64,000 bases of DNA from an uncultured Bacilli bacterium (lineage in GTDB: Bacteria > Bacillota_I > Bacilli_A > RF39 > UBA660): assembly GCA_934177995.1 (NCBI GenBank), contig CAKPPW010000002.1:16425-80424 (forward strand), written 5' to 3'. This document shows positions 9,453 through 52,169 of this stretch, one piece after another. Both the position numbers and the translations under genes were made by a program. The notes under the pieces were generated by a model that worked only from the letters and a program-made list of their open reading frames with translations, did no database searches and was not told the origin of the DNA. Position 1 is the first letter of the stretch. Each line of letters begins with the position of its first letter.

Positions 9453-9511
9453 TTGACTTTTATTAAATAAAAGGTTATTATTTTAGTATAAAGAGTTTAC
9501 TATCGTGAACT
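9453..9511 (+). promoter_or_regulatory. Sigma-A promoter followed by 18-nt operator copy 1
   Basis: TTGACT 9453-9458, 17-nt spacer, TATTAT 9476-9481; AGTTTACTATCGTGAACT at 9494-9511, just downstream of the predicted start site. Confidence 0.6.
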
Positions 9512-9536
9512 GCTTTAAATTTGTTGGAGGTGGTAG

Positions 9537-9566
9537 ATGTTATTGTGTTTTGAAAAGTCATTATAA
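9537..9566 (+). CDS. 9-codon mini-ORF (MLLCFEKSL) with strong SD; possible leader peptide
   Basis: SD GGAGGTGG 9526-9533, ATG 9537, TAA 9564-9566. Confidence 0.25.
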   Translation: MLLCFEKSL

Positions 9567-9612
9567 ACTTTTCGCATTTAAATGTAGTAATATATTTTAT
9601 TTTTAATCAAAT

Positions 9613-9630
9613 AGTTTACTATCGTGAACT
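9613..9630 (+). promoter_or_regulatory. 18-nt operator copy 2 (AGTTTACTATCGTGAACT)
   Basis: Identical to copies at 9494, 44399 and 52152; preceded by T-rich context TTTTATTTTTAATCAAAT; internal TACTAT could act as a -10. Confidence 0.55.
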
Positions 9631-9647
9631 AAAAGAGAGGTGATTAA

Positions 9648-9830
9648 ATAAACTACAAAGAGAAGGAAAGGTATAAAATATATAATACCTTATCTGATAA
9701 CCATGGATATTTTCTAACTATCATTAAAGTAATAAATAACAAAGTTTATTATTTATTTGATGGGGATGATGAAATAAAATTCTTTGAAGTTGGTAGTCAA
9801 TTTGAATTCGATTTAATAAGGATAATTTAA
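9648..9830 (+). CDS. Hypothetical 60-aa protein, apparent ATA start
   Basis: Open frame from 9648 (preceded by in-frame TAA) to TAA 9828-9830, with no ATG/GTG/TTG in frame. SD GAGAGGTGA at 9635-9643. Translation INYKEKERYKIYNTLSDNHGYFLTIIKVINNKVYYLFDGDDEIKFFEVGSQFEFDLIRII looks protein-like. Confidence 0.35.
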   Translation: MNYKEKERYKIYNTLSDNHGYFLTIIKVINNKVYYLFDGDDEIKFFEVGSQFEFDLIRII

Positions 9831-9852
9831 AAGATTCGAGAGGGGAAACAAA

Positions 9853-10116
9853 ATGAAGTTTTCAAGTGAAAATAGTAAAATCCCTGATTGGATATTGCAT
9901 CATTTAAGAAAATATGGCAATTGTTGTTGTGGCAGAGATATAGTCAAGAAAATCGGTAGAGAAAAAATTATAGAAGTTTTGAAACAAGAAGGGTATCCAT
10001 GTATTCTTAAAATAATATATGAAAATAAATATAGATATAAGCGAAGAGTAAAATACCCATTAGATGCTTATTATATTTTGGAGATAGAATGTTTGGTAAA
10101 AAGTTATTATATATGA
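9853..10116 (+). CDS. Hypothetical 87-aa protein, translationally coupled to the MazF-like toxin (candidate antitoxin)
   Basis: SD GAGAGGGGAAAC; stop overlaps the toxin start in ATGA (10113-10116); contains a CCC cluster; no MazE/AbrB-like motif recognised. Confidence 0.55.
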   Translation: MKFSSENSKIPDWILHHLRKYGNCCCGRDIVKKIGREKIIEVLKQEGYPCILKIIYENKYRYKRRVKYPLDAYYILEIECLVKSYYI

Positions 10117-10436
10117 AAAACTTTAAAAAAGGAGATATATTTTTAGCTGAATTAAATGATTCCTACAATCATGTTCAAAACGGAATAAGACCTTGTTTAA
10201 TTGTTCAAAACAATCAGGGTAATACTTTTTCGCCAACACTAATTGTTGTACCGTTAACAACAAAAATTAAAAAGACTAATATGCCTGTACATGTTGTGAT
10301 AACTCCATATCAAATGGTTTTGTGTGAATGTATTTTAACTATTTCAAAGAAGCAAATAATTTCTTACATTAAAACATTGGATGAAAAAACTATGAAAAAA
10401 GTAGATGAAGCTTTATCCGTATCATTAGAGATTTAA
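10113..10436 (+). CDS. PemK/MazF-family type II toxin (endoribonuclease)
   Basis: ORF track 10089..10436; ATG 10113 in ATGA overlap; KKGDIFLAELN...VQNGIRPCLIVQNNQGN...TLIVVPLTTKIKK...PVHVVI fits the MazF/PemK consensus. Confidence 0.8.
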   Translation: MKNFKKGDIFLAELNDSYNHVQNGIRPCLIVQNNQGNTFSPTLIVVPLTTKIKKTNMPVHVVITPYQMVLCECILTISKKQIISYIKTLDEKTMKKVDEALSVSLEI

Positions 10437-10485
10437 AAAGGGAGGAAAAAACATTAAAACAAAGGTAAAGCAGTTTTATGAAGAC

Positions 10486-11043
10486 TTGTTTAGTAGTAGT
10501 TCAGGGAAGTATTGGTGTAATGAAGGTAATAATAAAAGAATGCGTAATTATCATAAGTTATCATTTATTTTAAAAGTAATAGAAAATGTTTTACTATTAT
10601 CATTTATTCTATATTGTTTATGTTTATCTACAAATACTATATTTTATCTATTTGATAGATTAAAGTATTGCAGCGAGGGAATAGCTTTGATGAACATAGA
10701 TACTTTTAAAAAGTTTGTCTATGATACTTATATTATAACTTTTATTATGTCGTTGTTTGTAGTTCTATATGTTAGTAGAAAAAGGAAATACTCTTTAAAA
10801 AAGATTGTTTTAATAATGATTAAAGGATTATTATTTTTACCAATCAGCTCACTATTAACTTATAATTTTGTGATGTTAGGCAGTTTAATGAGAAGTTTCT
10901 ATTTAGCAGTAATTATTGCAGTATTAGTATTTGCTATTGATTTTTTAATAAAAAGAATTGATAGTTTATATGATTTGGCAGTAGGTAGTACAGATGTTAA
11001 TAAGAATAGAAAAGGAGAAAGCAAAGTATGCAAGAAAAAGTAA
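10486..11043 (+). CDS. Multi-pass membrane protein, hypothetical
   Basis: About 4 hydrophobic helices. Start uncertain: the frame is open from 10429 and a strong SD GGGAGGAAA (10439-10447) sits 5-6 nt before an in-frame ATT at 10453; TTG 10486 and ATG 10540 are alternatives. Confidence 0.55.
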   Translation: MFSSSSGKYWCNEGNNKRMRNYHKLSFILKVIENVLLLSFILYCLCLSTNTIFYLFDRLKYCSEGIALMNIDTFKKFVYDTYIITFIMSLFVVLYVSRKRKYSLKKIVLIMIKGLLFLPISSLLTYNFVMLGSLMRSFYLAVIIAVLVFAIDFLIKRIDSLYDLAVGSTDVNKNRKGESKVCKKK

Positions 11044-11285
11044 ATATGAAAGGTAATGTTAAGTGGTTTAGTAGTGAGAAAGGATATGGATTTCTCTCAT
11101 GTAGTGAAATAGAAAATGATATATATGTACATTTTTCAGATATACAAATGAAAGGATTTAAAACTTTGGATGAGAATGATTCAGTAATTTTTGATTATGA
11201 CGAAGAAAAGCAAAAAGCAGTAAATGTTCGCAAAATAACTGAAGAAGAATCCAATGCAGAAGAAGATAATACGGATTCTGAATAA
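11028..11285 (+). CDS. Cold-shock domain protein (CspA family) with acidic C-terminal tail
   Basis: SD AAAGGAGAAAG; RNP motifs KGYGFL and VHFSDI; acidic tail EEESNAEEDNTDSE. Confidence 0.8.
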   Translation: MQEKVNMKGNVKWFSSEKGYGFLSCSEIENDIYVHFSDIQMKGFKTLDENDSVIFDYDEEKQKAVNVRKITEEESNAEEDNTDSE

Positions 11286-11746
11286 TGATTAATATTTTTG
11301 ATAAAGAAATTATATCAAAAATAGATATGGATAAAACAGTTATAAAAGGAAAGAAAATTTGTGAATTATATCAACCTTTAGTTGAAAAAAGGTTAAGACA
11401 ACTAAATACTAAAGCTTTTAATTCAGCAAGTATAGTTGTATTCTCTGGAGCTTCCACGGGTTCAACTTCATCTGATAGATTGTTAAAAAGTTTATCTTGG
11501 AATGAGGATCAGATAGCAAATTATATAAGAAGCATTTTTAGAATTCAAAACGAAGACAGAACAATTAGAGAGTTTTTGAGAATGAAATGTTTATATGGCT
11601 ATACGGATAGAGAAATTTCTGATAAACTTGAAATATCAGAAAGAACACTTAGAAGATATAAAAACAGAGCATATTTCTATTTAGCTGTTTATTCAAATCA
11701 AGTGGAATTTATTTATGAAAGGACTTATCATTTCTACTGGGATTAA
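11285..11746 (+). CDS. ArpU-like phage-type transcriptional regulator (sigma-70 region-4-like HTH)
   Basis: C-terminal LRMKCLYGYTDREISDKLEISERTLRRYKNRAYFYLA is a region-4-type HTH; length and layout fit the ArpU family; TAATG overlap with csp. Confidence 0.5.
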   Translation: MINIFDKEIISKIDMDKTVIKGKKICELYQPLVEKRLRQLNTKAFNSASIVVFSGASTGSTSSDRLLKSLSWNEDQIANYIRSIFRIQNEDRTIREFLRMKCLYGYTDREISDKLEISERTLRRYKNRAYFYLAVYSNQVEFIYERTYHFYWD

Positions 11747-13007: not shown

Positions 13008-14078
13008 TTAATTTGTATATAATTTACTTAATATTTTTGTATTTTTAATTTTATAGATCAGGTACAAAGTAATAAATAATATTAATATACATATTGCAAT
13101 AGATATAAAATAACTATAGTATATAAAGAAAATTAGATTAACTCCCCATATTAAATTAGCCAATTTAAATAAAATGATAGTTACTATATTATCTATTATA
13201 AAAATGGTATAAGTAAGATAAGTAACAGCTAAAAATACATTCCAAATTATTGACAGATTTGTATAACCAGATAATTTTAGTATAATTATTATTAATATTT
13301 TATCATTAATTAAATCATTTATAAATATGAATAAATTGATTATGAAAAGAAAAATAATTATAAAAATAAATGGTGTTATTATAGATAACAGGCTATTATA
13401 TTCCTTTAACTCAGTTTGATAACTATTATCAAAAAGAGTAGCATTGATATTATGGCTTTTAAATATATTTATTAAATCATCAACTTGTTTTTGTTCGCTT
13501 ACTTTTATTAGAAATTCATTTTCACTATTTTGAATGGTTCTAATTATATTATCTGAAATATAAATTTTATTTTGAAGATTAGAATCTCTCTCTTTATAAA
13601 AGCCAACAATTTTACAAGTTATTTTCTTTTCTTCTATTGATAGAACAATATTAGAATTTAAAATTTCTTTACTTAAATTTTTATATAAAGATTCAGGTAT
13701 AATAATTTCATTATTCTTGTTATTAAATTCTTTTCCATTTTGTATACTGATTTCCTCAGTTGGCAAAATCGGAGTGAGCATTATACTTCCTAATTTTTCG
13801 TTATATATGTTAATGCTTCCTATATAATAGTAAACTTTTTTTATGCCCTTATTTTTTAATATCTCATAAAATTGATCTTCATTTTCTTTGGTACTAAATG
13901 ATGTATAAACTATTCTATTTTCAACTCGATTTTGGAGTTTAGGAATCAAATTCTTTGATATTTGAGCATAGGATTGAATAATTACTATTATAGATAAGAA
14001 CAAACCTGATAATATAATATATGAAATAATTTGTCTTTTACTTAATTTTATGAATTCTTTTAATAATAGTGAATTCAT
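13008..14078 (-). CDS. FtsX/MacB-type ABC permease (second of two)
   Basis: N-terminal TM, about 190-aa extracytoplasmic domain, C-terminal 3-TM bundle; its start ATG directly follows the stop codon of the upstream permease. Confidence 0.7.
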   Translation of the reverse strand: MNSLLLKEFIKLSKRQIISYIILSGLFLSIIVIIQSYAQISKNLIPKLQNRVENRIVYTSFSTKENEDQFYEILKNKGIKKVYYYIGSINIYNEKLGSIMLTPILPTEEISIQNGKEFNNKNNEIIIPESLYKNLSKEILNSNIVLSIEEKKITCKIVGFYKERDSNLQNKIYISDNIIRTIQNSENEFLIKVSEQKQVDDLINIFKSHNINATLFDNSYQTELKEYNSLLSIITPFIFIIIFLFIINLFIFINDLINDKILIIIILKLSGYTNLSIIWNVFLAVTYLTYTIFIIDNIVTIILFKLANLIWGVNLIFFIYYSYFISIAICILILFITLYLIYKIKNTKILSKLYTN

Positions 14079-15296
14079 TTAATTTTTTAGTTCTTCCATA
14101 ATATTATTTTTTTTAAGCTTATTATTAAATATCAGTGATAACAAGACATTTATGATAATGCAGAATGAAATTCCTAGTATTATATTTAATTTTGAAATTG
14201 TTAATTTTAATCCATATAGCATTTCTTCGTTATTCAAATAACAGTTTTGAAAAACAAAAATTAAGAAGAGAGTTATAATTAGTGTTAGAAACAAAGTTAC
14301 TAATATACATAAAAATGATTCAAGGAATTGTAATTTTATAATATCTACTCGATTATACCCAAGTGTTTTTAATATTGCGTATTTTTTATTTCGCTTATAT
14401 TGATTTTTTATTGATATTAAGATGATAACTATGATTGAAATAATCCCCACTAGTAAACCTATCGTTGTAATTAAATTCAAAATTTTATTCCCGATTGTGG
14501 TATCAATTTTTACAACGGGATCTCCATTTGTATAAAAATGATTTTTTTCAAACCTTTTTAAAGTTTCATGAATATCATCTGTGCTTTTAAGTCTAACTAC
14601 TAGAGGATAAATTATTCCTTCTTCTTCTTTAAATGCTTCTGGCTGATAATACAAATTTAAATTTGTTACAATATCTGAATTTGTATAACAAAAATTTTCT
14701 TTTCCTTGTCTCATAGAGGAATCATAAGTTCCAATTAATCTAAAATTTTCTGTTTTAGTATCATCATCAATAAATTTTAAAGAAAATTGCTTTCCTAAAA
14801 GATTATTTAAATTTATTTCTTTTTTTTCTATTTTGTTTTCTTTTTTATATTCATAGAATATATTTTCAGGACATACCATAACTTTATCACTGGAATTATA
14901 ATTATCAATATTTTCCCCATTAGATATTGATATAGTATCTTTTGGTACTCCAAAAAGAAATAAATTGATTTCAGTATCATGATTAAGTCCCTCAAACATT
15001 CTCATATTTATTATGTAGGAAGTATAAGGAGATATAGATTCAATCGTATTGTATGATTGCAATTCTGCTAATGCTTCTTTTTCTGTTTTCTCATCAGGAT
15101 CATAATATACAAAAAATGTACGATAATCCACCATCTTTTTAACGCTTTGATTCCAATAGTTATTTAAACTGTTGGAAAAAACTAAGCAAAATATTGTGAT
15201 TGAAACAGCTATAGAAATAAAAATAATATTAAAATAATTTGCTTTATTTTTGTAAAATTCTTTAATCTCTATTTTTAACATATCAATTAATTTCAT
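14079..15296 (-). CDS. FtsX/MacB-type ABC permease (first of two)
   Basis: Same 1 + ECD + 3 TM topology; ...AILKTLGYNRVDII... within the FtsX-like C-terminal region; overlaps the ATPase gene end. Confidence 0.7.
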   Translation of the reverse strand: MKLIDMLKIEIKEFYKNKANYFNIIFISIAVSITIFCLVFSNSLNNYWNQSVKKMVDYRTFFVYYDPDEKTEKEALAELQSYNTIESISPYTSYIINMRMFEGLNHDTEINLFLFGVPKDTISISNGENIDNYNSSDKVMVCPENIFYEYKKENKIEKKEINLNNLLGKQFSLKFIDDDTKTENFRLIGTYDSSMRQGKENFCYTNSDIVTNLNLYYQPEAFKEEEGIIYPLVVRLKSTDDIHETLKRFEKNHFYTNGDPVVKIDTTIGNKILNLITTIGLLVGIISIIVIILISIKNQYKRNKKYAILKTLGYNRVDIIKLQFLESFLCILVTLFLTLIITLFLIFVFQNCYLNNEEMLYGLKLTISKLNIILGISFCIIINVLLSLIFNNKLKKNNIMEELKN

Positions 15297-15963
15297 CTAT
15301 AATCTCCGTCCTTCCATTTTTTAGGTAAATAATTTCATCAGCATAATCTTTAATGATGTCATCATGACAAATAACGATCACACATTTATCTTGATTTGAG
15401 AGTTTTTTTAATATACTTAAAATTTTAATTGTGTTTTCTTTATCTAAAGAAGCTGTGGGCTCGTCAGCTAATATAATCTCTGGATTATTGCATAGTGCAC
15501 GAGCAATTGCAACTCTTTGTTGTTCTCCACCCGAAAGTTGATTTGGGTAATGCTTATTCCTGTTTTCTATTCCTAATGAATTCAATAAGTTATTGACTCT
15601 TTCAACTTTTTCTTTTTTTGTTAAATTTCTATTAGTATAAAGTGGTAAAATTACATTTTCTGTGACATTCATTGTTGGAATCAAATTAAAAGATTGAAAT
15701 ATATATGCTAATTTCGTTTTTCTAAGATTAGCTATATTTTTTTCTGATAATTTTGATGTATTATGTCCGTCTATTTTTAATGTTCCGCTTGTTGGTTCTA
15801 TAAGAAGCCCAATTATTTGCATTAATGTAGATTTTCCACTTCCAGATTCACCCATAATTCCATACAATTTTCCTTCTTCAAACTTAATATTAATATCATC
15901 TAAAGCGTTTATGCATTTATTTTTAAATGAATATTTTTTTTGTACATTAATTAACTCTATCAC
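15283..15963 (-). CDS. ABC transporter ATP-binding protein (MacB/LolD-like)
   Basis: Walker A GESGSGKST, signature LSGGEQQRVAIARAL, Walker B ILADEPT; GTG start. Confidence 0.9.
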   Translation of the reverse strand: MIELINVQKKYSFKNKCINALDDINIKFEEGKLYGIMGESGSGKSTLMQIIGLLIEPTSGTLKIDGHNTSKLSEKNIANLRKTKLAYIFQSFNLIPTMNVTENVILPLYTNRNLTKKEKVERVNNLLNSLGIENRNKHYPNQLSGGEQQRVAIARALCNNPEIILADEPTASLDKENTIKILSILKKLSNQDKCVIVICHDDIIKDYADEIIYLKNGRTEIIDEIN

Positions 15964-15985
15964 TATTTACCTTCTTTCTTTTTAC

Positions 15986-16399
15986 TTAGTTTTGAGTCAT
16001 AATTACACTATTTGATTTAATTCCACAAAATTGTCTTCCACCTGTATAATTTGTAGAGAAACCATATGCATATCGTCCATTTTTAAATTTTCCCATATTA
16101 GCTCTAACGCATCGGTATAATTCTGTACTCATCATTTTACCAGATACTTGAGTGGTTGGACTGTAGTGTAATGTAACCCATAAAAGTTTTTCTCTATTAG
16201 ATGTGCAATCTGTATGAGCGTCCATAGAAATATCTATGATAAAATTTTTTGTGTCAAACCATCTATAGGAACCGATATGATTTGAATTAGCTGGCATATT
16301 TAATGTTGATTTATATTCAGCAGCAGAAACTTTTGTTGCCCCAAAAAGAGATAAAACAGCTATTCCAAAAACAAATAACGGCATTAATAATTTTTTCAT
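15986..16399 (-). CDS. Small secreted Cys-containing protein, unknown function (first gene of the ABC operon)
   Basis: SD GGAGGTGAAAG (rc); signal peptide ...ATKVSA|AEY; 3 Cys in a mature protein of about 110 aa. Confidence 0.65.
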   Translation of the reverse strand: MKKLLMPLFVFGIAVLSLFGATKVSAAEYKSTLNMPANSNHIGSYRWFDTKNFIIDISMDAHTDCTSNREKLLWVTLHYSPTTQVSGKMMSTELYRCVRANMGKFKNGRYAYGFSTNYTGGRQFCGIKSNSVIMTQN

Positions 16400-16536
16400 T
16401 CTTTCACCTCCTACTATATTATATTTATCATTATGAAAAAAAAGTAATGTAAAAGCACGAATAAATGATAATTTTTATGATATAATAAAATAGATAAATT
16501 TATTTACTTAAATTATATGTGGAAGGTGACAATTTA

Positions 16537-17097
16537 ATGGTAAAAAAATATATATTAATTGTTTTTTTGTTTTTAATTTTATTTTTATCTGGGTGTAGTA
16601 AAAAAGAAACGGGCTATTCTTATCATCCTACATATATAGACTCTAATAATGGCCAGCGTTGGTTGAACTATGCAATTTTGTATGAAAATACTTATACGGG
16701 GGTTAAAGATGGCTCATTAAGCATTTTAAAACAAGGAGAACAAACTGAGGAATATCAATTGTTTTTTTCAATAGATTCATTGTATTATAAAAAAGGAGAT
16801 ATTATATTGGGGACTTCAAATTATATATACATCTTTAATCAAGATCAAGAAAAAAATTTTAGAATTATAGGATTTAAATTATCTTCTGAAAAAGAAACAC
16901 CTGTAATAATAGATAATAAAAAAATAAAATCTATTGTTAATGTCCATGGTGCTAACAAAGAAAATATATATGTAAGTTATTTTGATGATAAGAATGAAAG
17001 ATATCTTAAAATAAGTGCAGATTTAAGTAAAATATATGAATTAGATAGTTTAGAAAGTGTAGAAGAACAAATGGAATATACTATTTTAAAAAAATAA
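16537..17097 (+). CDS. Lipoprotein, hypothetical
   Basis: ORF track 16519..17097; ATG 16537 after GGAAGGTGA; lipobox LFLSG|C; promoter TGATATAAT upstream. Confidence 0.7.
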   Translation: MVKKYILIVFLFLILFLSGCSKKETGYSYHPTYIDSNNGQRWLNYAILYENTYTGVKDGSLSILKQGEQTEEYQLFFSIDSLYYKKGDIILGTSNYIYIFNQDQEKNFRIIGFKLSSEKETPVIIDNKKIKSIVNVHGANKENIYVSYFDDKNERYLKISADLSKIYELDSLESVEEQMEYTILKK

Positions 17098-17153
17098 TCA
17101 AAAATAGTTAAATATTTATGCTATAATGTATTTGTATAATATAGTGAGGAAAG

Positions 17154-17181
17154 GGTGATTAATAACAGGTGATTAATAACA
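17154..17181 (+). repeat. Perfect tandem duplication of 14 bp (GGTGATTAATAACA x2) in a 5' UTR
   Basis: 17154-17167 and 17168-17181 are identical; they lie between the TGCTATAAT/TGTATAAT promoter boxes and the SD of 17238. Confidence 0.8.
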
Positions 17182-17237
17182 ATAGTTTATTTTAATTTAT
17201 TTATGTATTCGGATGTAGAAATGGAGGAATGTTAATT

Positions 17238-17714
17238 ATGAAAAAAGTAGTATTTATAATTTTGTGTATGGCAGTTTTTATGCCGTTTGCAGTTGAAGCT
17301 AAGACTTGTGAGTATGGGATGCCATCACCACCAATATACTATAATGGAAATTGGGCTTATGGACAAGTAATAAATTTTAAGACGTCAGCATCATCATGTC
17401 TAGCTGATAATATGTATGTTTATTTTAGTAATGGTAATTATTTATCCACTTTTAATTTTACCATAGAGGCTTATTTAATGGAAAAAGATAAAGATCCTAA
17501 TCCAGATGATAAAGCTAAACTATATTTTGGTTACAATTCAGGTTATAGTTTAATGAACTGGACTTTACAACAAAAATTTGATGGTAATTTAGATAGTGCT
17601 GGAGATCAAACTTGTGAGTTGTATATGAAATTTAGATTAAAAGAGCCGTTAGCACATAATAATTTTGAATACCTTGACAGCGATATGTTTAGATATACAA
17701 TATGCATGGATTAA
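17238..17714 (+). CDS. Secreted 4-Cys protein, family copy A (paralog of 25921..26421)
   Basis: ORF track 17229..; ATG 17238 after GGAGGAA; signal peptide ...AVEA|KT; conserved with the paralog: CE.G, KT.AS.C, VYFSN, YLME.D, GDQTCELYM.F, Y.ICM. Confidence 0.75.
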   Translation: MKKVVFIILCMAVFMPFAVEAKTCEYGMPSPPIYYNGNWAYGQVINFKTSASSCLADNMYVYFSNGNYLSTFNFTIEAYLMEKDKDPNPDDKAKLYFGYNSGYSLMNWTLQQKFDGNLDSAGDQTCELYMKFRLKEPLAHNNFEYLDSDMFRYTICMD

Positions 17715-18196
17715 AAAAAACTCGAAAAATTTGGATACTATTATCAATTTTATTTTTGATAATAGTATCATCATTAATTGTTTTATTCAAAAAACCAATA
17801 AATAAAATGGAAAGTAATAACTTGGATACAAATGAAAAATTTAATAAAAAGGAACAAAAAATAGTAGATGCAGCTTATAAAAAAATTGATAGTTCAGATT
17901 ATTTTGACCATTCTAATTTAAAAAAAATTGAACTAGAGAGCTTGCAATTATATGGATATTATAAATCTCAAAGCAATATTCTTTATATAAGGGTTAATTA
18001 TAATTCAGAATGTAAAGATGGTACTTATAGTTGTGATAATCTTGCTAAAGATAAATCTTATAGCTTATCAAATAATATTCCATTTTATTTTTTTATTAAA
18101 GTAGATACAAATAATTATAATCATTTAGAGATAGTTGATGGAATATCAGCCAATATAAATTCTGATTGGATATCAGATTCTAGTAAAATAGAGTAA
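17702..18196 (+). CDS. N-terminally membrane-anchored hypothetical protein, coupled to 4-Cys protein A
   Basis: Overlaps the upstream stop; TM IWILLSILFLIIVSSLIVLF. Confidence 0.65.
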   Translation: MHGLKKTRKIWILLSILFLIIVSSLIVLFKKPINKMESNNLDTNEKFNKKEQKIVDAAYKKIDSSDYFDHSNLKKIELESLQLYGYYKSQSNILYIRVNYNSECKDGTYSCDNLAKDKSYSLSNNIPFYFFIKVDTNNYNHLEIVDGISANINSDWISDSSKIE

Positions 18197-18258
18197 TATC
18201 ATCAAATAAAGCAGCAATAGAAAATAATATATTTCAAAAATTAAATTAAAAAAATATA

Positions 18259-18287
18259 TTGACTAATATTTGATTAAATGTTAATAT
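18259..18287 (+). promoter_or_regulatory. Sigma-A promoter
   Basis: TTGACT 18259-18264, 17-nt spacer, TAATAT 18282-18287. Confidence 0.6.
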
Positions 18288-18300
18288 TATTATGACAAAT

Positions 18301-18369
18301 GAATACGGTGTATTTTCGGTGTTAATTATATATAGACCTTGGTTGGTTTTTTATAGTTAACACTTTTTT
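18301..18369 (+). terminator. Conserved hairpin-terminator element, copy A (leader attenuator candidate)
   Basis: GAATACGGTGTATTTTCGGTGTTAATTA ... TTAACAC + TTTTTT; stem GTGTTAA/TTAACAC; lies about 10 nt after the predicted start site and about 210 nt before the first gene; related to copy B at 20271-20334. Confidence 0.5.
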
Positions 18370-18576
18370 ATTACCTAATATTTATTTTATATGTCCGGAC
18401 TATAAATAAAATATGGTATTTATATCTATTGTGTTCAATTGTCAATCATTTTATTTGATATTATGATTGAAACGGACTTGAATACGGTATTTTAAATCTT
18501 TCTATATATTAGATAAAAAATTTAATATTTAAGCAATTTTTTAATATTCTAACAAAAGCAGCAACAGGAGATCCAT

Positions 18577-18792
18577 ATGTATACAATGTACGAACCTACA
18601 GGGAATATAATAGGTTATATTCAACCTCATGATTTCTATGTTAGATATCTGGTTAGTAGCCCTAGTATGGATAATGTTCATAGAGTTGTGTTTAATGATG
18701 GTAAAGATGTTAAAATAGGTTATATAAGAGAACAGTATGTTTTACCTAGTATGACTTTAAATCCTACTGATGATGAAGCAGTAAAAGCATAA
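18577..18792 (+). CDS. Hypothetical 71-aa protein (5' part of an ORF split by one in-frame TAA)
   Basis: SD ACAGGAGAT; same frame as 18796..19131, separated only by TAA-ATA. Confidence 0.5.
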   Translation: MYTMYEPTGNIIGYIQPHDFYVRYLVSSPSMDNVHRVVFNDGKDVKIGYIREQYVLPSMTLNPTDDEAVKA

Positions 18793-18795
18793 ATA

Positions 18796-19131
18796 TTGGT
18801 AGGTTATGAACCATTCACTTGTGTAGAATATGATCAAGCTTCTGATGAATATATACTGCATAAATGGAAAGATACACCATCAAGAGAAATCTATATTAAT
18901 AAACTAGTCCCTTATTTTAATGCCCAATGGTCTTATGTAGGGATGCTTAATAAAGGTGATTATATAAAAATAAATAGAGGTAATTTTATTAATCCAGGGT
19001 ACACAAGACCATGGACAAATCGTATAGATGGAATTAAGAAAAAAGGTAGTATTTCATTTACTAGTTTTTCTGGTTATGCAATTATTGGAATTGAGTACGC
19101 TAGTCAAGGATATGAAAGAGCTTGGTATTAG
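18796..19131 (+). CDS. Hypothetical 111-aa protein (3' part of the split ORF)
   Basis: TTG start with no SD of its own; N-terminus GYEPFTCVEY echoes YEPTGNIIGY of the upstream part. Confidence 0.45.
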   Translation: MVGYEPFTCVEYDQASDEYILHKWKDTPSREIYINKLVPYFNAQWSYVGMLNKGDYIKINRGNFINPGYTRPWTNRIDGIKKKGSISFTSFSGYAIIGIEYASQGYERAWY

Positions 19132-19219
19132 AAAACTATCATTAGATATTATCAAGTATAATATAATATGATATAATAGTTTTGGTGATTAAGCTGAAAA
19201 TATAATTATACTTTTACTT

Positions 19220-19414
19220 TTGATATTATGTGTATGTGGATGTGAAAATAACAATCAATATACAGATTTTAAACATTATGATTTAAGGAATTATGATATT
19301 ACTAATAAATATTCCTATGTAGATGATGATTATATATATTATAATGGAAGTACTAGTATTTCTAGTTCAATTGAAGTTGTCAAATGTTCTAGAAATAGTT
19401 ATAAATGTCAATAA
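19220..19414 (+). CDS. Small Cys-rich, possibly lipoprotein-like peptide; start unclear
   Basis: Frame open from 19193 (AENIIILLLLILCVCGCENN...). TTG 19220 gives too short a signal peptide; ATA/ATT codons at 19202-19210 would give a hydrophobic leader; TGATATAAT promoter at 19168-19176. Confidence 0.3.
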   Translation: MILCVCGCENNNQYTDFKHYDLRNYDITNKYSYVDDDYIYYNGSTSISSSIEVVKCSRNSYKCQ

Positions 19415-19449
19415 TAAAATACCAAACTAAAACTATTATCATGATTAAT

Positions 19450-19485
19450 AAAGAAAATGCTTGATATGCATTTTCTTTATTTTAT
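19450..19485 (+). terminator. Rho-independent terminator
   Basis: AAAGAAAATGC-TTGATAT-GCATTTTCTTT followed by a T-rich tail. Confidence 0.7.
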
Positions 19486-19497
19486 TTATAGGCGAGG

Positions 19498-20256
19498 ATG
19501 GTGATTAAAATTAAACTTGTAACTAAAATATTTAAAAGAAATGATTGGTATGTAACTTCACCTTTTGGAAGTAGAAATCCAATTAAAACTAAAAAAGGTA
19601 TAACCACCAGCTTTCATAATGGATGCGATTATGGAACTAATGGAGAAAAGTGGGGACAATATGCTTTAGAAAATGGCAAAATTTTATCTTGTGGAATCGC
19701 TTCTGATGGAGCTAAATATATATGGGTAAATTATCCAAGAATCAATAAAAAAATTTTGCACTACCATTTAGATAGTATTTGTGTAAAAACGGGGCAAGAA
19801 GTTCATGAGGGATTATTACTTGGCTATACAGGTTCAACTGGTATGGCTACAGGAATTCATTTACATTTAGGAATGAAAAATAGTAATGGTGGAGACTATG
19901 AAGATCCACATAATTATGATTACCAGTTAAATAACATTAATCATTCTGAGACATCTAAAATGGATTTAATAAAAATTGCTTATGAAGTAATTGCAGGGAA
20001 ATATGGTAATGGAAAGACTAGAATTGATAAACTTACTAATATGGGATATAATGCAAGTGATGTTCAAAAGATAGTAAATGAAATAAAAAATAAAGAGCTA
20101 AAACGGACAAATTTTTACATAGTAAAAAAAGATGATACTCTAATAAAAATAGCTAAAAAATTTGGAACAACATGGGAAAAATTATATGAATTAAATAGAG
20201 ACATTATAGGTAATGATCCTGATTTAATTAAAATAGGTCAAATATTGAAATACTAG
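19498..20256 (+). CDS. Signal-less M23 peptidase + CW_7 (Cpl-7-like) + LysM murein hydrolase (endolysin-like)
   Basis: HNGCDYG and GSTGMATGIHLHLGM (M23 HxxxD/HxH); IAYEVIAGKYGNGKTRIDKLTNMGYNASDVQKIVNEI (CW_7-like); YIVKKDDTLIKIAKKFGTTWEKLYELN (LysM); no signal peptide. Confidence 0.8.
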   Translation: MVIKIKLVTKIFKRNDWYVTSPFGSRNPIKTKKGITTSFHNGCDYGTNGEKWGQYALENGKILSCGIASDGAKYIWVNYPRINKKILHYHLDSICVKTGQEVHEGLLLGYTGSTGMATGIHLHLGMKNSNGGDYEDPHNYDYQLNNINHSETSKMDLIKIAYEVIAGKYGNGKTRIDKLTNMGYNASDVQKIVNEIKNKELKRTNFYIVKKDDTLIKIAKKFGTTWEKLYELNRDIIGNDPDLIKIGQILKY

Positions 20257-20270
20257 TAAAAAAAATTTAT

Positions 20271-20334
20271 AATTACGGTAATTTATTCGGTGTTAATTAG
20301 TATATAATTTTTTATATTGATTAACACCTTTTTT
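20271..20334 (+). terminator. Conserved hairpin-terminator element, copy B
   Basis: AATTACGGTAATTTATTCGGTGTTAATTA...ATTAACACC + TTTTTT; 9-bp stem 20289-20297/20320-20328. Confidence 0.65.
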
Positions 20335-20389
20335 ATATTTGTTAAAGAGTAGATGTTTTAAGTCAATTTTATAAAGAGAGGGGAAGAAA

Positions 20390-20824: not shown

Positions 20825-21146
20825 TGTTGCTAATACTTTAGCAGTGTATAAAAAAGTCGAATTTTATTGTATAATATCTATGATAGCAAGGCAAAAATGC
20901 CAAGTATTTATATTAAGAAATGTGATGGTGAAATAATAATAAAAAGAAACTAGTTAAGTAGTAAGAAGTAAAAAGTAGTATAATACACTTTCTATTCTTA
21001 CTGTAGATACTAGTTTATATATGCAAAAAAATTGTGTAGTATTTATTTTTTGCTTTATATGAATTGCTTTTATGGAGCGATTATTATGGAACTAGAAAAG
21101 TATTATACATATTTTTTAGTAAGAAAAGATAGTATATTAAATCATA

Positions 21147-21196: not shown

Positions 21197-21240
21197 CAAT
21201 TTATAAAAATACTTTTTCTTAGGGCAAGAAGTCCTCCCGT

Positions 21241-41233: not shown

Positions 41234-42439
41234 ATGGATGGTAATGCTAAACATGATTTGGAGCATACTGCTGAAAAAACAGTTGCTGTATCAGCAAAAT
41301 CAACAAAAATATTTACAAAGATATTTGGCAGATTTTTGATAAAAGCTAAAAGATATTATAATAAACATTTTTCATCATCAATGAAAGCACTGCGTAATGA
41401 TGGTGCTACTAAAGAATTATATGTTACTCCACCACTTACAAGAGCAGAGGCAAAGCAAATCATCGCTGCATGTCGAGAAAATAATGTATTAATGGGAATT
41501 AAAAAGATGGATCCAGATGGTGAAAAGGGAAAGAATCAATCTCTTCATAAACAAGAAAAACTTGCTAAGAATGAAATAAAATATAGAAAATGGAATGATA
41601 GAAGAAGTACATTCAAAAAGATTCCAATCATTCAAAATATATGTAAGGCTCAAACTGATAAATATAAAAGGTTATCTATACAAGATGAGCAACAAAATTT
41701 AGATGAGAGATATGTTTTGATATTTAATAAAAGTAAGTTAGGATTTTTAAATGAACAGTTAGCAAAAATTCCTGAAAACAGAGTAAAGCAGTATGCAAAA
41801 AATGAACTTGCTGATATTAATAAAGATGGTATTATTGATGAGCATGATTATGAGCCTATGTTATCAAGAGGAATGAATCTTAAAGTTGAAGATTTAAATA
41901 AAGTTGGAGAAGATTTTGGCTCATGTGCTGTTAGAGATTATTTGTCTAATTATTGTACTCAAAAGATTACCAAACAACAATATTGCGAAATTAGAGAGCA
42001 ATTATTTGAGTTACGAAGTCATGGAGCATGTGTTTATAATGATAATGAAATGATAATTGCTATTCATTCTGAAGATTTAGAAGAATATAAAAGGATTGCT
42101 CCTCTTGATAGACCAATTAAAGAGTATGGTTCAAATGGTGCTAGAGATATTGAGTCAGAAAGTAATACAAATGATATTATTGAATTAGAGTTAAATAATT
42201 TTGATGATTATAAATTATTTAAAGAAAAATATAGTAGTAAAGATTTTGTTGCACAGCATACTCCTGATGGCAAAACAACAGTTCTTGTTAAAGAAACAGA
42301 TACAAAGGATTTGGTTGAAAACAGTAAAAAAAAATCGAAAACAGCAGATTTAGTAAAAGAGGCAGATGAATTTGCTGAAAAAAATAATCCAGTAGAAAAA
42401 GTCTTAGATAAGGAAGAGGAGTTAGAAGTTGCTCGTTAA
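41234..42439 (+). CDS. PcfB/DUF3801-like protein with long C-terminal extension
   Basis: SD AAGGAGGCTG; sits immediately upstream of the coupling protein, as pcfB does; N-terminal region ...LRNDGATKELYVTPPLTRAEAKQIIAACRENNVLMGIKK fits loosely. Confidence 0.4.
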   Translation: MDGNAKHDLEHTAEKTVAVSAKSTKIFTKIFGRFLIKAKRYYNKHFSSSMKALRNDGATKELYVTPPLTRAEAKQIIAACRENNVLMGIKKMDPDGEKGKNQSLHKQEKLAKNEIKYRKWNDRRSTFKKIPIIQNICKAQTDKYKRLSIQDEQQNLDERYVLIFNKSKLGFLNEQLAKIPENRVKQYAKNELADINKDGIIDEHDYEPMLSRGMNLKVEDLNKVGEDFGSCAVRDYLSNYCTQKITKQQYCEIREQLFELRSHGACVYNDNEMIIAIHSEDLEEYKRIAPLDRPIKEYGSNGARDIESESNTNDIIELELNNFDDYKLFKEKYSSKDFVAQHTPDGKTTVLVKETDTKDLVENSKKKSKTADLVKEADEFAEKNNPVEKVLDKEEELEVAR

Positions 42440-44372
42440 AAGAGTTCATAAAGGTAGTAAATGGGTTATTTTTATTATAGCTTTGATTGCCTCTTATTAT
42501 TCTCTTAGAGTAAGTAGTTTAGCTGAAGTAAACGGAGAATTTAAGTTTGAATATTTAACTGAAGCTTTGGATAAACTTCATATTATTACAACGCCATTAG
42601 TTTTAAATGCTAAAACAATATCAACAGCATTATTTATAGGATTATTTGTTGCAATGATTATATATACTTATTTAATAAATAATAAAAAAAATATTCAAGA
42701 AAATACTCATGGTTCTTCAGAATGGGAAGATCCTAAGAATACTTTAGAATATCGTGATAAAGAATATACTAACAATCAAATATTTACATCTACTGAAATG
42801 TTTTCAAAAAATATGAAAATATCAAAGAGAAATAGAAATGTAATTTTACTGGGAAGACCTGGGACTGGTAAAAGTCGGTATTATTTTAAGCCTAACCTTT
42901 TAAATGCAGATGGAGAAACAATTATAGTTACAGATCCAAAAGGAGAACTTCTTCGTGATGCAGGGATGTCTTTAATTAATAAAGGTTATGATATACGAGT
43001 GTTAAATTTAGTAGAAAAGTGGAAATCTGATCATTTTAATCCTTTACTTTATATTAAAAAAATAAATAAATATGTTGATGAAGACTCTGAGGGTGAAGAG
43101 TGGATAGCAGAAGATGATGTCATGACTTTAATAAATACTTTAATGTTGAATACAAAATCTGAAACCATAGAAAGTAATACGGGAGATCCATTTTGGGAAA
43201 GATGTGAATCAATGTTTCTTCAAGCAATTATTTATTATGTTATATTTAATTATGATTTGAAAGATAGAAACTTTAAAACCGTTCTTGAATTAATAAGACT
43301 TGCAGAACCAGATAAAGAAGGTAATTCTACTTTAGGAAATATGTTTAAAGTTTGGGAAACTAAAGATCCCGATAATATAGGTATTAAGCAGTGGAAACAT
43401 TTTAAAGTTTCTGCTTCTTCTACAAAAATGATGAGTACAATTATTATTACAGCATCTGCAAGACTTTCACCATTTAATATTGCTGAACTAGAAGCAATTA
43501 CAGTTAATGATACTATGGAATTAAATCGTATTGGTGGTAAGGGTGATGAAGGTAAAATTGCTTACTTTATTATCAATAGTCCGAATGATTCTACATTTAA
43601 TTTCATTGCAAGTATTATGTATACTCAAATATTTTCCATTATAGATTATAATGCTAGTCATAATAATGGTTCTTTAGCTTCTCCATGTCAGATATACTGT
43701 GATGAGTGGAGTCAGCTGGGAGTAATACCACGCTACTTAGAAAATTTGGCTTATGTTCGAGGACTTAATTGTGGTATAACTACATGTTTGCAAAGTTTAA
43801 GCCAACTTAAAAAAGTTTATAAAGATAATTGGGAAACAGCTCTTGATTGTTGCGATTATATTCTTTTTATGGGATCTCGAAGTAAAGAAACATTAGATTA
43901 TATGTCTTCTATGCTGGGCAAAAAAACATGGTATAAAAGGTCATCTGGTAGAACTTATTCTAAACAAGGTTCTTCTTCGACTAACTGGGATATTGTTGGT
44001 AGAGAACTTGCATTTATAGATGAAATTGCTAGGATGGAAAAAGGTTATTGTATTTTATTAGTTTCTGGACTACGACCTTTTTACTCTAAGATGTATGATT
44101 TATCAAAACATCCTAGGTACTCAGAATTGTTTGAGGCGTGGAATGAAAGTTCTACGATTCAAAATAGATATGATCATGAAGTAGAAAGGAGGAAGACAAG
44201 GGAAATAAGAAGGAAACAACAGTTATTTAAAGATTTAGGTTTGGGATTCGTGAAAATAAATTCTGAATTTAAAGCTAGAAAAATGACTTTGGAAGAAGAA
44301 AAACAGTTTGATAAAAGTGAAGTATTGTTATCTAATAAATCACTTACTGATGAACTATTAGATGCTATTTAA
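42429..44372 (+). CDS. Type IV secretion coupling protein (VirD4/TraG family)
   Basis: TTG start after GAAGAGGAG; two N-terminal TMs; Walker A LLGRPGTGKS; Walker B-like IYCDEW. Confidence 0.85.
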   Translation: MLVKRVHKGSKWVIFIIALIASYYSLRVSSLAEVNGEFKFEYLTEALDKLHIITTPLVLNAKTISTALFIGLFVAMIIYTYLINNKKNIQENTHGSSEWEDPKNTLEYRDKEYTNNQIFTSTEMFSKNMKISKRNRNVILLGRPGTGKSRYYFKPNLLNADGETIIVTDPKGELLRDAGMSLINKGYDIRVLNLVEKWKSDHFNPLLYIKKINKYVDEDSEGEEWIAEDDVMTLINTLMLNTKSETIESNTGDPFWERCESMFLQAIIYYVIFNYDLKDRNFKTVLELIRLAEPDKEGNSTLGNMFKVWETKDPDNIGIKQWKHFKVSASSTKMMSTIIITASARLSPFNIAELEAITVNDTMELNRIGGKGDEGKIAYFIINSPNDSTFNFIASIMYTQIFSIIDYNASHNNGSLASPCQIYCDEWSQLGVIPRYLENLAYVRGLNCGITTCLQSLSQLKKVYKDNWETALDCCDYILFMGSRSKETLDYMSSMLGKKTWYKRSSGRTYSKQGSSSTNWDIVGRELAFIDEIARMEKGYCILLVSGLRPFYSKMYDLSKHPRYSELFEAWNESSTIQNRYDHEVERRKTREIRRKQQLFKDLGLGFVKINSEFKARKMTLEEEKQFDKSEVLLSNKSLTDELLDAI

Positions 44373-44398
44373 ATGTAGTTTATTTTTTTTGATGTAGT

Positions 44399-44416
44399 AG
44401 TTTACTATCGTGAACT
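44399..44416 (+). promoter_or_regulatory. 18-nt operator copy 3 at the head of the T4SS channel operon
   Basis: AGTTTACTATCGTGAACT; preceded by TAGTTTATTTTTTTTGATGTAGT, which is nearly the same as the context of copy 4. Confidence 0.6.
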
Positions 44417-50404: not shown

Positions 50405-50417
50405 AAAAGGAGAAAAT

Positions 50418-50840
50418 ATGAAAAAGGGTAAGATAATTTTTATTTTCATAGTTGTAATTTTAGTATGTATTGTAGTTCCATTGTTATTAAATAAAGGAAC
50501 TATCCAGAGAAAATTAAAAGCACATGAGCAAGAACAAGCTCAAAAAGAGGCATACGAAGCAACATTGAAGGCAGATGAAGTTGCTCCAATATTAATTCTC
50601 ACACAAGATAAAGTAATAATGTATCAAGGAGATGAACTAAATTATAAAGCTTTTATTAAAGAAGCATCTGACAATTTAGAAGGGAATCTAACTGATAAGG
50701 TTATTTATAATGAATTAGATATTAATAAATCAGGAGAGTATGTAGTCGAGTATGAAATTAGTGATACTGCACTAAATACTACTAAAGCTGAACTTCAAGT
50801 AATTATTAAAGAAAAACCAAATTTTAAATATGTAAATTAG
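50418..50840 (+). CDS. Membrane-anchored Ig-like (DUF5011-type) protein
   Basis: SD AAAGGAGAAAA; TM; DEVAPILILTQDKVIMYQGDELNY...GEYVVEYEISDTALNTTKAELQVIIKE. Confidence 0.6.
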   Translation: MKKGKIIFIFIVVILVCIVVPLLLNKGTIQRKLKAHEQEQAQKEAYEATLKADEVAPILILTQDKVIMYQGDELNYKAFIKEASDNLEGNLTDKVIYNELDINKSGEYVVEYEISDTALNTTKAELQVIIKEKPNFKYVN

Positions 50841-50862
50841 TTATAGGAAGGGAGAACTATTT

Positions 50863-51597
50863 ATGAGTGATGAAGAATTATTGATTATGTATCAAAAATA
50901 TAAGAGAAAAAGAATGATTATTATTGCTGTCATTCTTCTTTTCATCTTATTAATAAGTTTGTATTTATACTTTCACTTTAATAATACTTCATCTCCAGAA
51001 GTCGAAAAAATAAAAGAAGAAGTAATTGTAAAAGATGAAGTTGCTCCAATCATTAAATTAAAAGTTAATAATATAGAAATCACGAAAGGGGATGATATAA
51101 GTTATTTGGATTATATAGAGAGTGTAATTGATGACAAAGATGGAGATTTATTAGATAAAGTTAAATATCAAGAAATTGATACTTCTATTATTGGTGAACA
51201 ATCAATTATATATAGTGCTTCTGATAATTCTGGTAATAGTAGTCAAGAAATTCTTTCTGTTTTAATAAAAGAAAAAATATTAGAAAATAACAATGGTTCA
51301 TCTTCTAATAATAGTCCGATGCCAGATAAAGAAAAGCCATCAATACCAAGTAATAATAATTCAAGTAATAAAGAAACAAATAAGCCAAAAGATCCAGTTC
51401 AAAATGAAAAACCAATTATTGAAAATAAACCTTCAACTAAAATAGTAAAATATTTTCTTTTCTCTGATGGATATACCATGGTGAATGTTGCTGAAGCTTG
51501 TGCTAATGAATTAAAAAAGACAAATCAAACAGGAATGTGTAGTCCGATTCAAGATGAAAATGGAATTTATTTAGGTATGAAGTTAGAAACAGAATGA
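50863..51597 (+). CDS. Membrane-anchored Ig-like (DUF5011-type) protein, paralog-like of 50418
   Basis: SD AAGGGAGAAC; TM; DEVAPIIKLKVNNIEITKGDDISY...GEQSIIYSASDNSGNSSQEILSVLIKE; low-complexity S/N/P linker. Confidence 0.6.
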   Translation: MSDEELLIMYQKYKRKRMIIIAVILLFILLISLYLYFHFNNTSSPEVEKIKEEVIVKDEVAPIIKLKVNNIEITKGDDISYLDYIESVIDDKDGDLLDKVKYQEIDTSIIGEQSIIYSASDNSGNSSQEILSVLIKEKILENNNGSSSNNSPMPDKEKPSIPSNNNSSNKETNKPKDPVQNEKPIIENKPSTKIVKYFLFSDGYTMVNVAEACANELKKTNQTGMCSPIQDENGIYLGMKLETE

Positions 51598-51635
51598 TTA
51601 TAAAATATTATGTAAAAAATAGAAAAGGAGAAAAT

Positions 51636-51914
51636 ATGAAAGAGATTTTTACAGAAGAAGAATATCAAGAAGCCGTAAAATTATATAATGAACAAGTTAG
51701 AAATGACTTTTATAGTAATAAAGAATATTATTCAAATTACGAAGGATATGCTGATTTAAGAGATTTTGATATGTCTGAAGATGACTTTAAAATGTTATGG
51801 AGATGTCAAGATTTACTCTATAATTATGAACATTCCAATAATGGTTCACTAATAACACAAAAGGCTTACAATGAAATTAAATCAATATATTTAAATTGTT
51901 TTAATGGAGCTTAA
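51636..51914 (+). CDS. Hypothetical small protein
   Basis: ORF track 51594..; ATG 51636 after AAAAGGAGAAAA. Confidence 0.55.
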   Translation: MKEIFTEEEYQEAVKLYNEQVRNDFYSNKEYYSNYEGYADLRDFDMSEDDFKMLWRCQDLLYNYEHSNNGSLITQKAYNEIKSIYLNCFNGA

Positions 51915-51916
51915 TA

Positions 51917-52132
51917 ATGAATAAAGAATATATTAAAGAGATATTTGAAAAAAATAAAAAAATTTTTAAAAATAGTGAAATCGAAATAAATTCAGTCGAA
52001 GATTTAGAAAGTCAAATAATGTCTTATGTAATTTCAAATTTACAATATGATTTTAATATAGATATTGATCAGGATAAATTATTTAATAATGATTATGAAA
52101 TAGAATTAGATGACAACGATTTAGAAAAGTAG
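51917..52132 (+). CDS. Hypothetical 71-aa strongly acidic protein
   Basis: Abuts the upstream stop; C-terminal half DIDQDKLFNNDYEIELDDNDLEK. Confidence 0.5.
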   Translation: MNKEYIKEIFEKNKKIFKNSEIEINSVEDLESQIMSYVISNLQYDFNIDIDQDKLFNNDYEIELDDNDLEK

Positions 52133-52151
52133 TTATTTTTTTTGATACAAT

Positions 52152-52169
52152 AGTTTACTATCGTGAACT
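52152..52169 (+). promoter_or_regulatory. 18-nt operator copy 4 at the head of the XRE / leading-region operon
   Basis: AGTTTACTATCGTGAACT preceded by TAGTTATTTTTTTTGATACAAT; 17 nt upstream of ATG 52187. Confidence 0.6.

Follow-up and report, generated by a model that had tools for sequence, protein, structure and literature searches.

The question raised by this locus was why one 18-nt near-palindrome, AGTTTACTATCGTGAACT, should stand unchanged at four separate places in a stretch of 64,000 nt from an uncultured Bacilli bacterium (GCA_934177995.1, contig CAKPPW010000002.1, positions 16,425 to 80,424; this whole stretch is called the window). By its gene content in Pfam, NCBIfam and PHROG scans, the window is an integrative conjugative element (ICE). 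The comparisons described below make it probable that the 18-mers are DNA operators bound by a dimeric repressor encoded by the element itself, most likely the 133-aa helix-turn-helix (HTH) protein of positions 8240-8641, here called HTH-133.

A pattern scan of the window returned four exact matches to the 18-mer, all on the + strand, and the identity of 18/18 positions at 9494-9511, 9613-9630, 44399-44416 and 52152-52169, reported by a first-pass annotation of this DNA, was confirmed. When up to three mismatches were allowed, five matches were found against 0.07 expected, a number reached in 0 of 100 shuffles; the fifth was a variant site on the - strand (8742-8759). The looser pattern GTYYAC-N4-GTRRAC gave six matches against 0.01 expected, the two additional ones at 8700-8715 and 8743-8758. 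On direct reading of the sequence all four exact copies were intergenic and lay shortly 5' of a Shine-Dalgarno (SD) sequence, again as first annotated. The six putative operators were the following:

9494-9511, + strand: copy 1, putative operator at roughly +6 to +23 of the predicted promoter P1
9613-9630, + strand: copy 2, putative operator heading the regulatory operon
44399-44416, + strand: copy 3, putative operator between the coupling protein (T4CP) gene and the type IV secretion system (T4SS) channel genes (VirB2-like, VirB6-like, PrgI, VirB4, CHAP)
52152-52169, + strand: copy 4, putative operator heading the XRE gene and leading-region genes (SSB, ArdC)
8699-8716, + strand: O_L, putative variant operator, TGTCTACCATTGTGAACT, a pattern match with equivalents in the related loci L007, L010, L014, L018, L021, L029 and L046
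8742-8759, - strand: O_R, putative variant operator, TGTCTACTGTCGTGAACT on the - strand, overlapping the -35 box of the predicted promoter PR

The position of these sites relative to the promoters predicted by a promoter scan was then informative. The features of the left module that bear on it were:

8240-8641, - strand: gene of HTH-133, the proposed repressor, with weak HTH matches, divergently transcribed
8676-8704, - strand: PL, predicted promoter of the repressor gene, TAGACA-17-TACAAT, with its -35 box inside O_L
8754-8782, + strand: PR, predicted rightward promoter, TAGACA-17-TAAAAT with TG
9397-9423, + strand: predicted intrinsic terminator closing the PR unit, a 12-bp stem followed by a T tract
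9453-9481, + strand: P1, predicted near-consensus sigma-A promoter, TTGACT-17-TATTAT, ending 12 nt before copy 1

The -35 hexamers of the divergent promoters PL and PR lie inside O_L and O_R, respectively, and the same arrangement, with the variant sites upstream of the predicted starts, was present in the seven related loci. Because they overlap these hexamers, the two variant sites are not transcribed from PL or PR.

To place the motif beyond the window, the exact 18-mer was searched in 596 Gb of genomes, with one genome per species, and was found in 17 stretches. Twelve of these belonged to related elements of four low-GC metagenome-assembled genomes, labelled Mollicutes, Bacilli (two) and Muribaculaceae, the last label being a suspected binning error; the other five were single in-gene matches on unrelated contigs of higher GC. 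The genome search proposed by the first-pass annotation showed the motif to be confined to the element in host-sized contigs. The relatives came from uncultured low-GC gut Bacilli or 'Mollicutes', and their regulatory-module proteins were 45-65% identical to those of the window. Despite this protein divergence, the 18-mer was identical at 18/18 positions, at homologous junctions and with the same facing relative to the genes. Additional copies were observed ahead of other genes in the relatives L011 and L015. Further lineages were obtained from contigs carrying homologues of the HTH and XRE proteins and from a metagenome scan with one variant site. The regulatory region had no megablast match in the phage or plasmid collections, the 18-mer had no match in IMG/VR, and a full-text literature search for the motif string returned nothing. 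The VirB4 of the window had hundreds of near-identical database entries, and the VirB4 homologue search brought up no distant relatives, all of the top 120 matches listed having at least 91% identity.

Five types of site were distinguished among these elements:

Type I, AGTTTAC TATC GTGAACT: window and close relatives
Type II, AGTCCAC TATC GTGAACT: L018, L021, L023, L026, L029, L031
Type III, TGTCTAC TATT GTAGACA: L025, L027, L046, L050 and others
Type IV, GCTCCAC TATC GTGGAGT: L022
Type V, ATTCCAC TATT GTGGACT: L028

The core AC-TAT-Y-GT was invariant in the gene-heading copies, and the outer positions 2:17, 4:15 and 5:14 varied symmetrically across the five types. The copies of one element were generally of one type, with some variants of one to four bases (copy 2 in L010 and L014, copies 3 and 4 in L022). 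Furthermore, the contigs OIYT01000354 and OIYP01000044 carried type III sites in their regulatory as well as their transfer modules, which shows that these modules form one element and evolve in concert. This agreement of site type between modules on the same contigs bore out the earlier proposal that the 6-13 kb and 41-63 kb modules of the window belong together. The set of controlled junctions differs between elements, since operators were missing at some of them: in L024 (2152-2190) the T run that accompanies copy 3 was kept and the 18-mer was absent, and neither T run nor site was found at the copy 4 position in L027 (9964-10001) and L028 (9985-10001). Two further arrangements were noted. 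In L037 (1-540) the sequence upstream of copy 4 (the end of a 71-aa gene and the T run) was joined to a type III site and then to the VirB2-like gene, which normally follows copy 3; site copies could have recombined here, giving a duplication or an excised circle, or the contig could have been misassembled into a chimera at the repeat. A contig with a type III site, L033, contained one more perfect dyad of the same core, TGCTTACTATCGTGAGCA (50-67), which may represent a sixth type or be read by a related regulator.

Two architectures were observed around the gene-heading copies. The P1 type, TTGAC(T/A)-17-TAT(T/C)AT followed by 11-12 nt and the operator, was present in 11 of 11 distinct relatives, covering all three main site types. 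The internal type consisted of (T/A)A, a run of seven or eight T, R-A, six variable bases and the operator. A T run was found in 30 of the 45 distinct gene-heading sites, with a gap to the operator of 8 nt in 24, 9 nt in four and 7 nt in two. In the 28 distinct internal sites it was preceded by A and followed by a purine without exception (28/28 for each), as against 16/32 and 23/32, respectively, for all runs of at least seven T in the window. The sequence TA(T/A)TTT was located 11-13 nt from the operator in 23 of these 28 sites (range 8-13), as in P1, and no -35 box was conserved. In the window, copies 3 and 4 occupied intergenic gaps of 67 and 54 nt between co-directional genes, likewise with no conserved -35 box, in the context of a stop codon, T8, 8 nt and the site. 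The T-rich context that had already been noticed at these two copies was real, and it turned out to be general among such sites. Copy 4 was the exception among the internal sites, with a -35-like ATGACA at 18 nt. The corresponding regions were:

9595-9612, + strand: T-rich core module 5' of copy 2, TTTTATTTTT then AATCAAAT
44381-44398, + strand: core module 5' of copy 3, TA, T8, GATGTAGT
52110-52151, + strand: promoter-like region 5' of copy 4, ATGACA-18-TATTTT then 12 nt

From their sequence, the internal modules look like the -10, discriminator and operator of P1 minus the -35 box. They could be weak promoters (perhaps activator-dependent), roadblocks to read-through, or both. Operator-less canonical promoters lie upstream of the adhesin genes, and between about position 28.4 kb and copy 3 no + strand terminator was predicted in an intergenic gap, the sole + strand terminator-like match (31949-31984) being inside the open reading frame (ORF) 31819-34971. 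With promoters upstream and no intergenic terminator before copy 3, read-through is plausible. Copy 2 was found within the leader of P1 itself, only 119 nt after this promoter, in all lineages, a placement that fits a second checkpoint. Two other ideas were discarded. The T run was not an intrinsic terminator, as no hairpin precedes it, it lies 8 nt 5' of the dyad and no terminator was called at copies 3 and 4. DNA looping between copies 1 and 2 was rejected, as their spacing in the relatives (98-140 bp) was not helically phased.

Regarding the protein that reads the sites, HTH-133 would most likely be the binder: transcription of its gene diverges from the O_L/O_R pair, which makes it the classic candidate. 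It matched the Cro/C1-type HTH family HTH_26 of Pfam (E 0.0012, 19.5 bits, below the 22-bit cut-off) and the transcriptional regulator family phrog_8 (E 1.5e-4), and had no significant sequence match in PDB. Its structure model was poor (pLDDT, a model confidence score, of 52), so that a fold search was unjustified; helices were placed at residues 22-29 and 33-44. In the latter, the predicted third helix, K33, S37 and K38 were invariant in eight homologues from type I and II elements, two of them only 47% and 54% identical to the window protein, and the homologue from a type III element (47% identity) had R, N and R at positions 33, 37 and 38. Hence, in the comparison of related elements that had been proposed, the recognition helix of HTH-133 changed with the site type. 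The helix change corresponds to one evolutionary event, and this co-variation is for that reason suggestive only.

The nature of the site itself was weighed against the alternative, raised by the first-pass annotation, that the element acts as RNA. In this reading a 7-bp hairpin with a UAUC loop in 5' leaders would be bound by a protein such as the cold-shock protein Csp of the element, cut by MazF, or used as a processing or stabilising signal. The 7-bp hairpin with its G-U pair could indeed be computed, at -5.0 kcal/mol, and the gene-heading copies of types I, III, IV and V folded at -5 to -10 kcal/mol, with the autoregulatory ones folding less well. Moreover, pair 5:14 was always standard or G-U, four pairs had changes on both sides, every type I and II copy was oriented as its downstream gene, and the Csp and MazF genes are within the copy 2 operon. 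A palindromic DNA site would nevertheless give the same symmetric co-variation, and O_L and O_R lie upstream of the predicted transcription starts. All type II copies had an uncompensated C.A mismatch at 4:15, which left a hairpin of just -2.7 kcal/mol, and this pair was unpaired in 13 of the 22 distinct sites. Single-base variants in the relatives broke pairs with no compensation. In five contigs the type III copy behind P1 read TGTCTAC AATA GTAGACA, with TATT in the other copies, that is, the same duplex flipped, with an AAUA instead of a UAUU loop. A stem maintained by compensation in all copies, with constant loop and orientation, was thus not what the sites displayed. The site most likely functions as DNA, as a double-stranded operator, and its flipping implies a dimer as the binder. 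A hairpin role is possible as an addition and cannot be the primary function, and the RNA reading was judged very improbable. Equally improbable was that the 18-mer and its T-rich flank form a dedicated promoter for the ArpU/sigma-like protein (11285-11746), in the manner of phage late promoters. This activator is encoded in the copy 2 operon, the internal sites are devoid of a -35 box, and the sites have a direction and lie at a short, constant distance from start codons. Against it, the two halves of the site vary symmetrically and the dyad can be flipped, the site matches no conserved bipartite -35/-10 pattern, and its variants overlap -35 boxes of ordinary promoters. The ArpU-like protein also had an HTH that diverged strongly with no change of site (L012) and barely changed where the site differed (L046, type III). 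Other promoter classes were discarded too. For a T7-like promoter of an RNA polymerase of the element, Pfam scans of the large ORFs yielded adhesins, primase, methylase and a glycoside hydrolase-like protein, and no polymerase; for a promoter of the extracytoplasmic function (ECF) type, GAAC as the -35 would put the -10 in or beyond the SD sequence; for a sigma-A promoter whose -35 would be formed by the last part of the T run, a -10 was lacking at the proper spacing. An operator read by another protein of the element, either the XRE protein (52187-52525) or the 87-aa/MazF pair 3' of copy 2, was considered unlikely, less so than the RNA reading and the ArpU promoter. Both genes or gene pairs are directly 3' of a copy, as expected for autoregulation, the XRE protein has a clear HTH_3 domain, and toxin-antitoxin complexes often bind palindromic sites in the promoters of their own genes. 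The XRE recognition helix, however, varied within type I elements and was common to types I, II and IV, no recognisable DNA-binding domain was detected in the 87-aa protein by Pfam, NCBIfam and PHROG scans, and neither candidate adjoins the O_L/O_R pair. Consequently, of the two HTH proteins named as candidate regulators in the first annotation, that of 8240-8641 was favoured, and the XRE protein, whose helix did not track the site type, was disfavoured.

A different possibility concerns the internal copies. Copies 2, 3 and 4 might be pure elongation blocks, that is, 'stoperators' with a release element, and not promoters, which we regard as possible and rather improbable. The bound repressor would stall the incoming polymerase with its RNA-DNA hybrid in the T7-8 run, where weak rU:dA pairing would favour backtracking and release, a sequence of events that we put forward tentatively. 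It is equally doubtful, yet conceivable, that the result would be a repressor-dependent terminator that disappears on induction. The modules (stop codon, (T/A)A-T7-8, 8 nt, operator) would in that case be conditional terminators in which a DNA-bound repressor replaces the terminator hairpin, a description we likewise hold to be improbable. The T7-8 run was at 8 +/- 1 nt from the site in all 30 internal sites having a run, which agrees with this scheme, as do the lack of a conserved -35 box, the presence of copy 2 in the leader, after the strong promoter P1, in every lineage, and the plausible read-through into copy 3 from canonical promoters upstream. Precedents exist in the repressor of mycobacteriophage L5 (PMC9283540) and in the terminators of RNA polymerase I (PMC12366685). 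Nevertheless, the T run and the invariant A and purine that flank it fit the geometry of the P1 -10 and discriminator equally well, and copy 4 has a usable -35 box (ATGACA, 18 nt). This explanation is compatible with the repressor-operator model, the sole difference being whether local initiation occurs.

Returning to the model of a repressor that reads operators, from the computed sites and their conservation, their positions relative to the predicted promoters and their co-variation with a protein helix we infer binding, repression, the identity of the binder and the parts played by the internal sites and the ArpU-like protein, as follows. The operator would be made up of two GTYYAC half-sites around the conserved TATY centre, bound by the dimeric repressor of the element. 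The repressor would control its own gene and the divergent PR unit through the weaker variant sites on the -35 boxes of PL and PR, and would shut the strong promoter P1 at copy 1, approximately +6 to +23 past the predicted start. It would also hold the three further sites of the window (and more in the relatives), which have the P1-like -10 spacing and (T/A)A-T7-8 and lack a -35, stopping there both the polymerase from a weak local core promoter and that arriving by read-through from upstream. Genes of the regulatory operon, of the mating channel and of the leading region would be off together, and on together once the repressor is inactivated. The ArpU-like activator from the P1 operon may boost the promoters lacking a -35 box, as a possible second tier of control. 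The proposal that a single repressor co-ordinates the toxin/regulatory, channel and early-transfer genes was thus strengthened by the same junctions in the relatives, the sites on the -35 boxes of the divergent promoters and the concerted change of the helix.

Several observations weigh against this model. The promoter activity of the internal sites is uncertain, as they have no conserved -35 box. The gene-heading copies were strictly identical at 18/18 positions, tighter than the autoregulatory operators, and had a better hairpin potential, which hints at an extra constraint beyond simple repressor binding. Besides the single event behind the helix change in HTH-133, no helix difference other than K43/Q43 separated type I from type II elements, and the assignment of this protein to the HTH class rests on the sub-threshold matches and the poor model mentioned above. 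Overall, the sequences are best described as the operator family of a previously uncharacterised ICE lineage, with one full promoter-operator unit and several internal units lacking a -35 box, most probably read by HTH-133.

The remaining gene content was established by domain scans, and the genes needed here were:

6030-7343: integrase gene, left module
7420-8223: gene of a DnaD-like replication protein, left module
11285-11746, + strand: gene of the ArpU/RinA-like (sigma-70 region 4-like) activator, 153 aa (phrog_248 transcriptional activator, E 7.8e-8; TIGR01637 ArpU, E 0.0012, below the cut-off)
42429-44372: T4CP gene, transfer module, preceded by methylase and primase genes

Directly to the left of the integrase gene a secA-like 3' fragment was observed (5537-6030). 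Relatives adjoin secA (L010 and L018; L018 at 13371-15866) or a seryl-tRNA synthetase gene (L031 at 5709-6992), and together these neighbours suggest that the elements insert at 3' ends of housekeeping genes and use more than one such target. Two small ORFs (64 and 106 aa) also adjoin the repressor gene in the left module. An 11-codon leader ORF, MKIVRWVILSS*, was located at 8830-8865, between PR and the 64-aa ORF. Its C-terminus, R-(V/W)-x-x-S-S-stop, and the following 'caggtgaaatttt..gaataa.ggcagtcttca' (to approximately 8880) were kept in relatives otherwise about 50% diverged, and this region may be a regulatory leader.

The leader mini-ORF that copy 1 had been thought to head (9537-9566) was not conserved in the relatives, where the SD-like GGAGGTGRT alone was. 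This 9-nt sequence lies at 9526-9534 and reads GGAGGTGGT in the window and GGAGGTGAT in the relatives; it was present 14-25 nt after copy 1 in all lineages and may stabilise the mRNA rather than start translation. The operon behind copy 2 comprised a small ORF, an 87-aa ORF, MazF, a membrane protein, Csp, the ArpU-like protein and a CAP-domain protein. Its earlier description as a MazF operon stood insofar as MazF is among its genes, and had to be amended in that the small conserved ORF and the 87-aa ORF come first. The small ORF (approximately 60 codons, KEKERY..YF(L/F)FDGDDE.., 9648-9830) had a GTG start in L007; an in-frame TAA stands ahead of it in the window and L010, where it has no canonical start. 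At 11028-11746 a CspE-like cold-shock-domain protein (85 aa) was followed directly by the ArpU/RinA-like activator, and this pair was kept in the regulatory modules of all relatives. U-rich RNA is bound by Csp proteins, and a U7-8 tract is present at every internal site.

The 13-35 kb part of the window is cargo, comprising an opposite-strand ABC transporter (13008-15963), a phage-type lysis cassette (M23/CW_7/LysM lysin, 19498-20256; holin, 20390-20824) and large adhesins. A second small sigma-like gene was found at 21287-21763, and none of the genes of 13008-21763 has the 18-mer. At 28243-28330 a promoter-like TTGACT-17-TAATAT was followed within approximately 60 nt by a hairpin, ATAGACA..TGTCTAT, and T8, 5' of a 1123-aa adhesin gene, a structure that could be an attenuator or a small RNA. 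The transfer module ran in the order methylase/primase, T4CP, copy 3, VirB2-like, VirB6-like, PrgI, VirB4, CHAP hydrolase and copy 4, with the XRE gene (52187-52525), SSB and ArdC located 3' of copy 4. The relaxase gene of this module was assigned by synteny with the relatives.

These results offer a wiring diagram for the silencing of conjugation in an uncharacterised ICE family that is common in human-gut metagenomes, with a candidate repressor, the consensus GTYYAC-TATY-GTRRAC, six sites in the window, the promoter P1 and a downstream tier (MazF, Csp and the ArpU-like protein). They also show that the regulatory and transfer modules, though far apart, make up a single unit. The unusual feature is the fixed T-tract/operator module, a clean natural case in which to ask whether repressors serve as programmed elongation blocks in the long operons of mobile elements.

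Finally, the locus was compared with known control systems, none of whose families is homologous to the proteins found here and several of whose defining features were absent. Small HTH repressors that are divergent from the transfer genes, bind operators in the divergent region and regulate their own synthesis are exemplified by ImmR of ICEBs1. Rco of pLS20 has the same layout and autoregulation, with operators in its divergent promoter region (PMC7641744). This layout is also predicted here, with two dyad sites on core elements of both predicted promoters, but ImmR and Rco act at one promoter region, whereas identical sites are spread over 43 kb in the present element. No gene of an ImmA-like protease or Rap-like anti-repressor was seen beside the repressor gene in domain scans of its neighbours. 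In IncP-1 plasmids (RK2/RP4), KorA and KorB use near-identical palindromic operators at separate operon promoters, including those of transfer genes, and such plasmid repressors co-ordinate the backbone (PMC3199767). The regulon logic of shared operators ahead of separate operons is similar. The proteins, in contrast, are non-homologous (no KorA or ParB-family KorB domain was found in Pfam scans of the regulatory and transfer modules), the host is of Gram-positive type, and the sites stand after the -10 within very short gaps between co-directional genes, with an accompanying T-tract module.

In cluster A mycobacteriophages such as L5, repressor sites at promoters and in many short intergenic spaces are orientation-biased and thought to stop elongation (PMC9283540). 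The internal sites described here likewise occupy short gaps within co-directional operons and stand apart from full promoters. The L5 repressor, however, binds as a two-domain monomer to an asymmetric 13-mer, whereas an 18-bp flippable near-palindrome is present here, in far fewer copies (four to seven) and in an ICE instead of a phage. The same problem, spurious transcription inside long conjugation gene arrays, is solved by conAn of pLS20 and in Tn916 through internal terminators and processive antitermination, which suppress such transcription until induction (PMC8955417, PMC11658703). Those systems employ intrinsic terminators and an antitermination factor or RNA; in the present modules the T run precedes the dyad, and the order hairpin-then-U-tract is lacking. 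Bacterial roadblocks have been reviewed (PMC10310618), and the terminators of RNA polymerase I combine a roadblock with a T-rich element 15 bp upstream (PMC12366685), a T-tract-plus-roadblock geometry resembled by the internal modules. If these modules were conditional terminators, a single protein would shut the main promoter and also shield every block of a 50-kb conjugation gene array from read-through. In that case the ICE would provide a bacterial counterpart of the roadblock-plus-T-tract termination of RNA polymerase I, and conjugative elements would have their first stoperator-like system.

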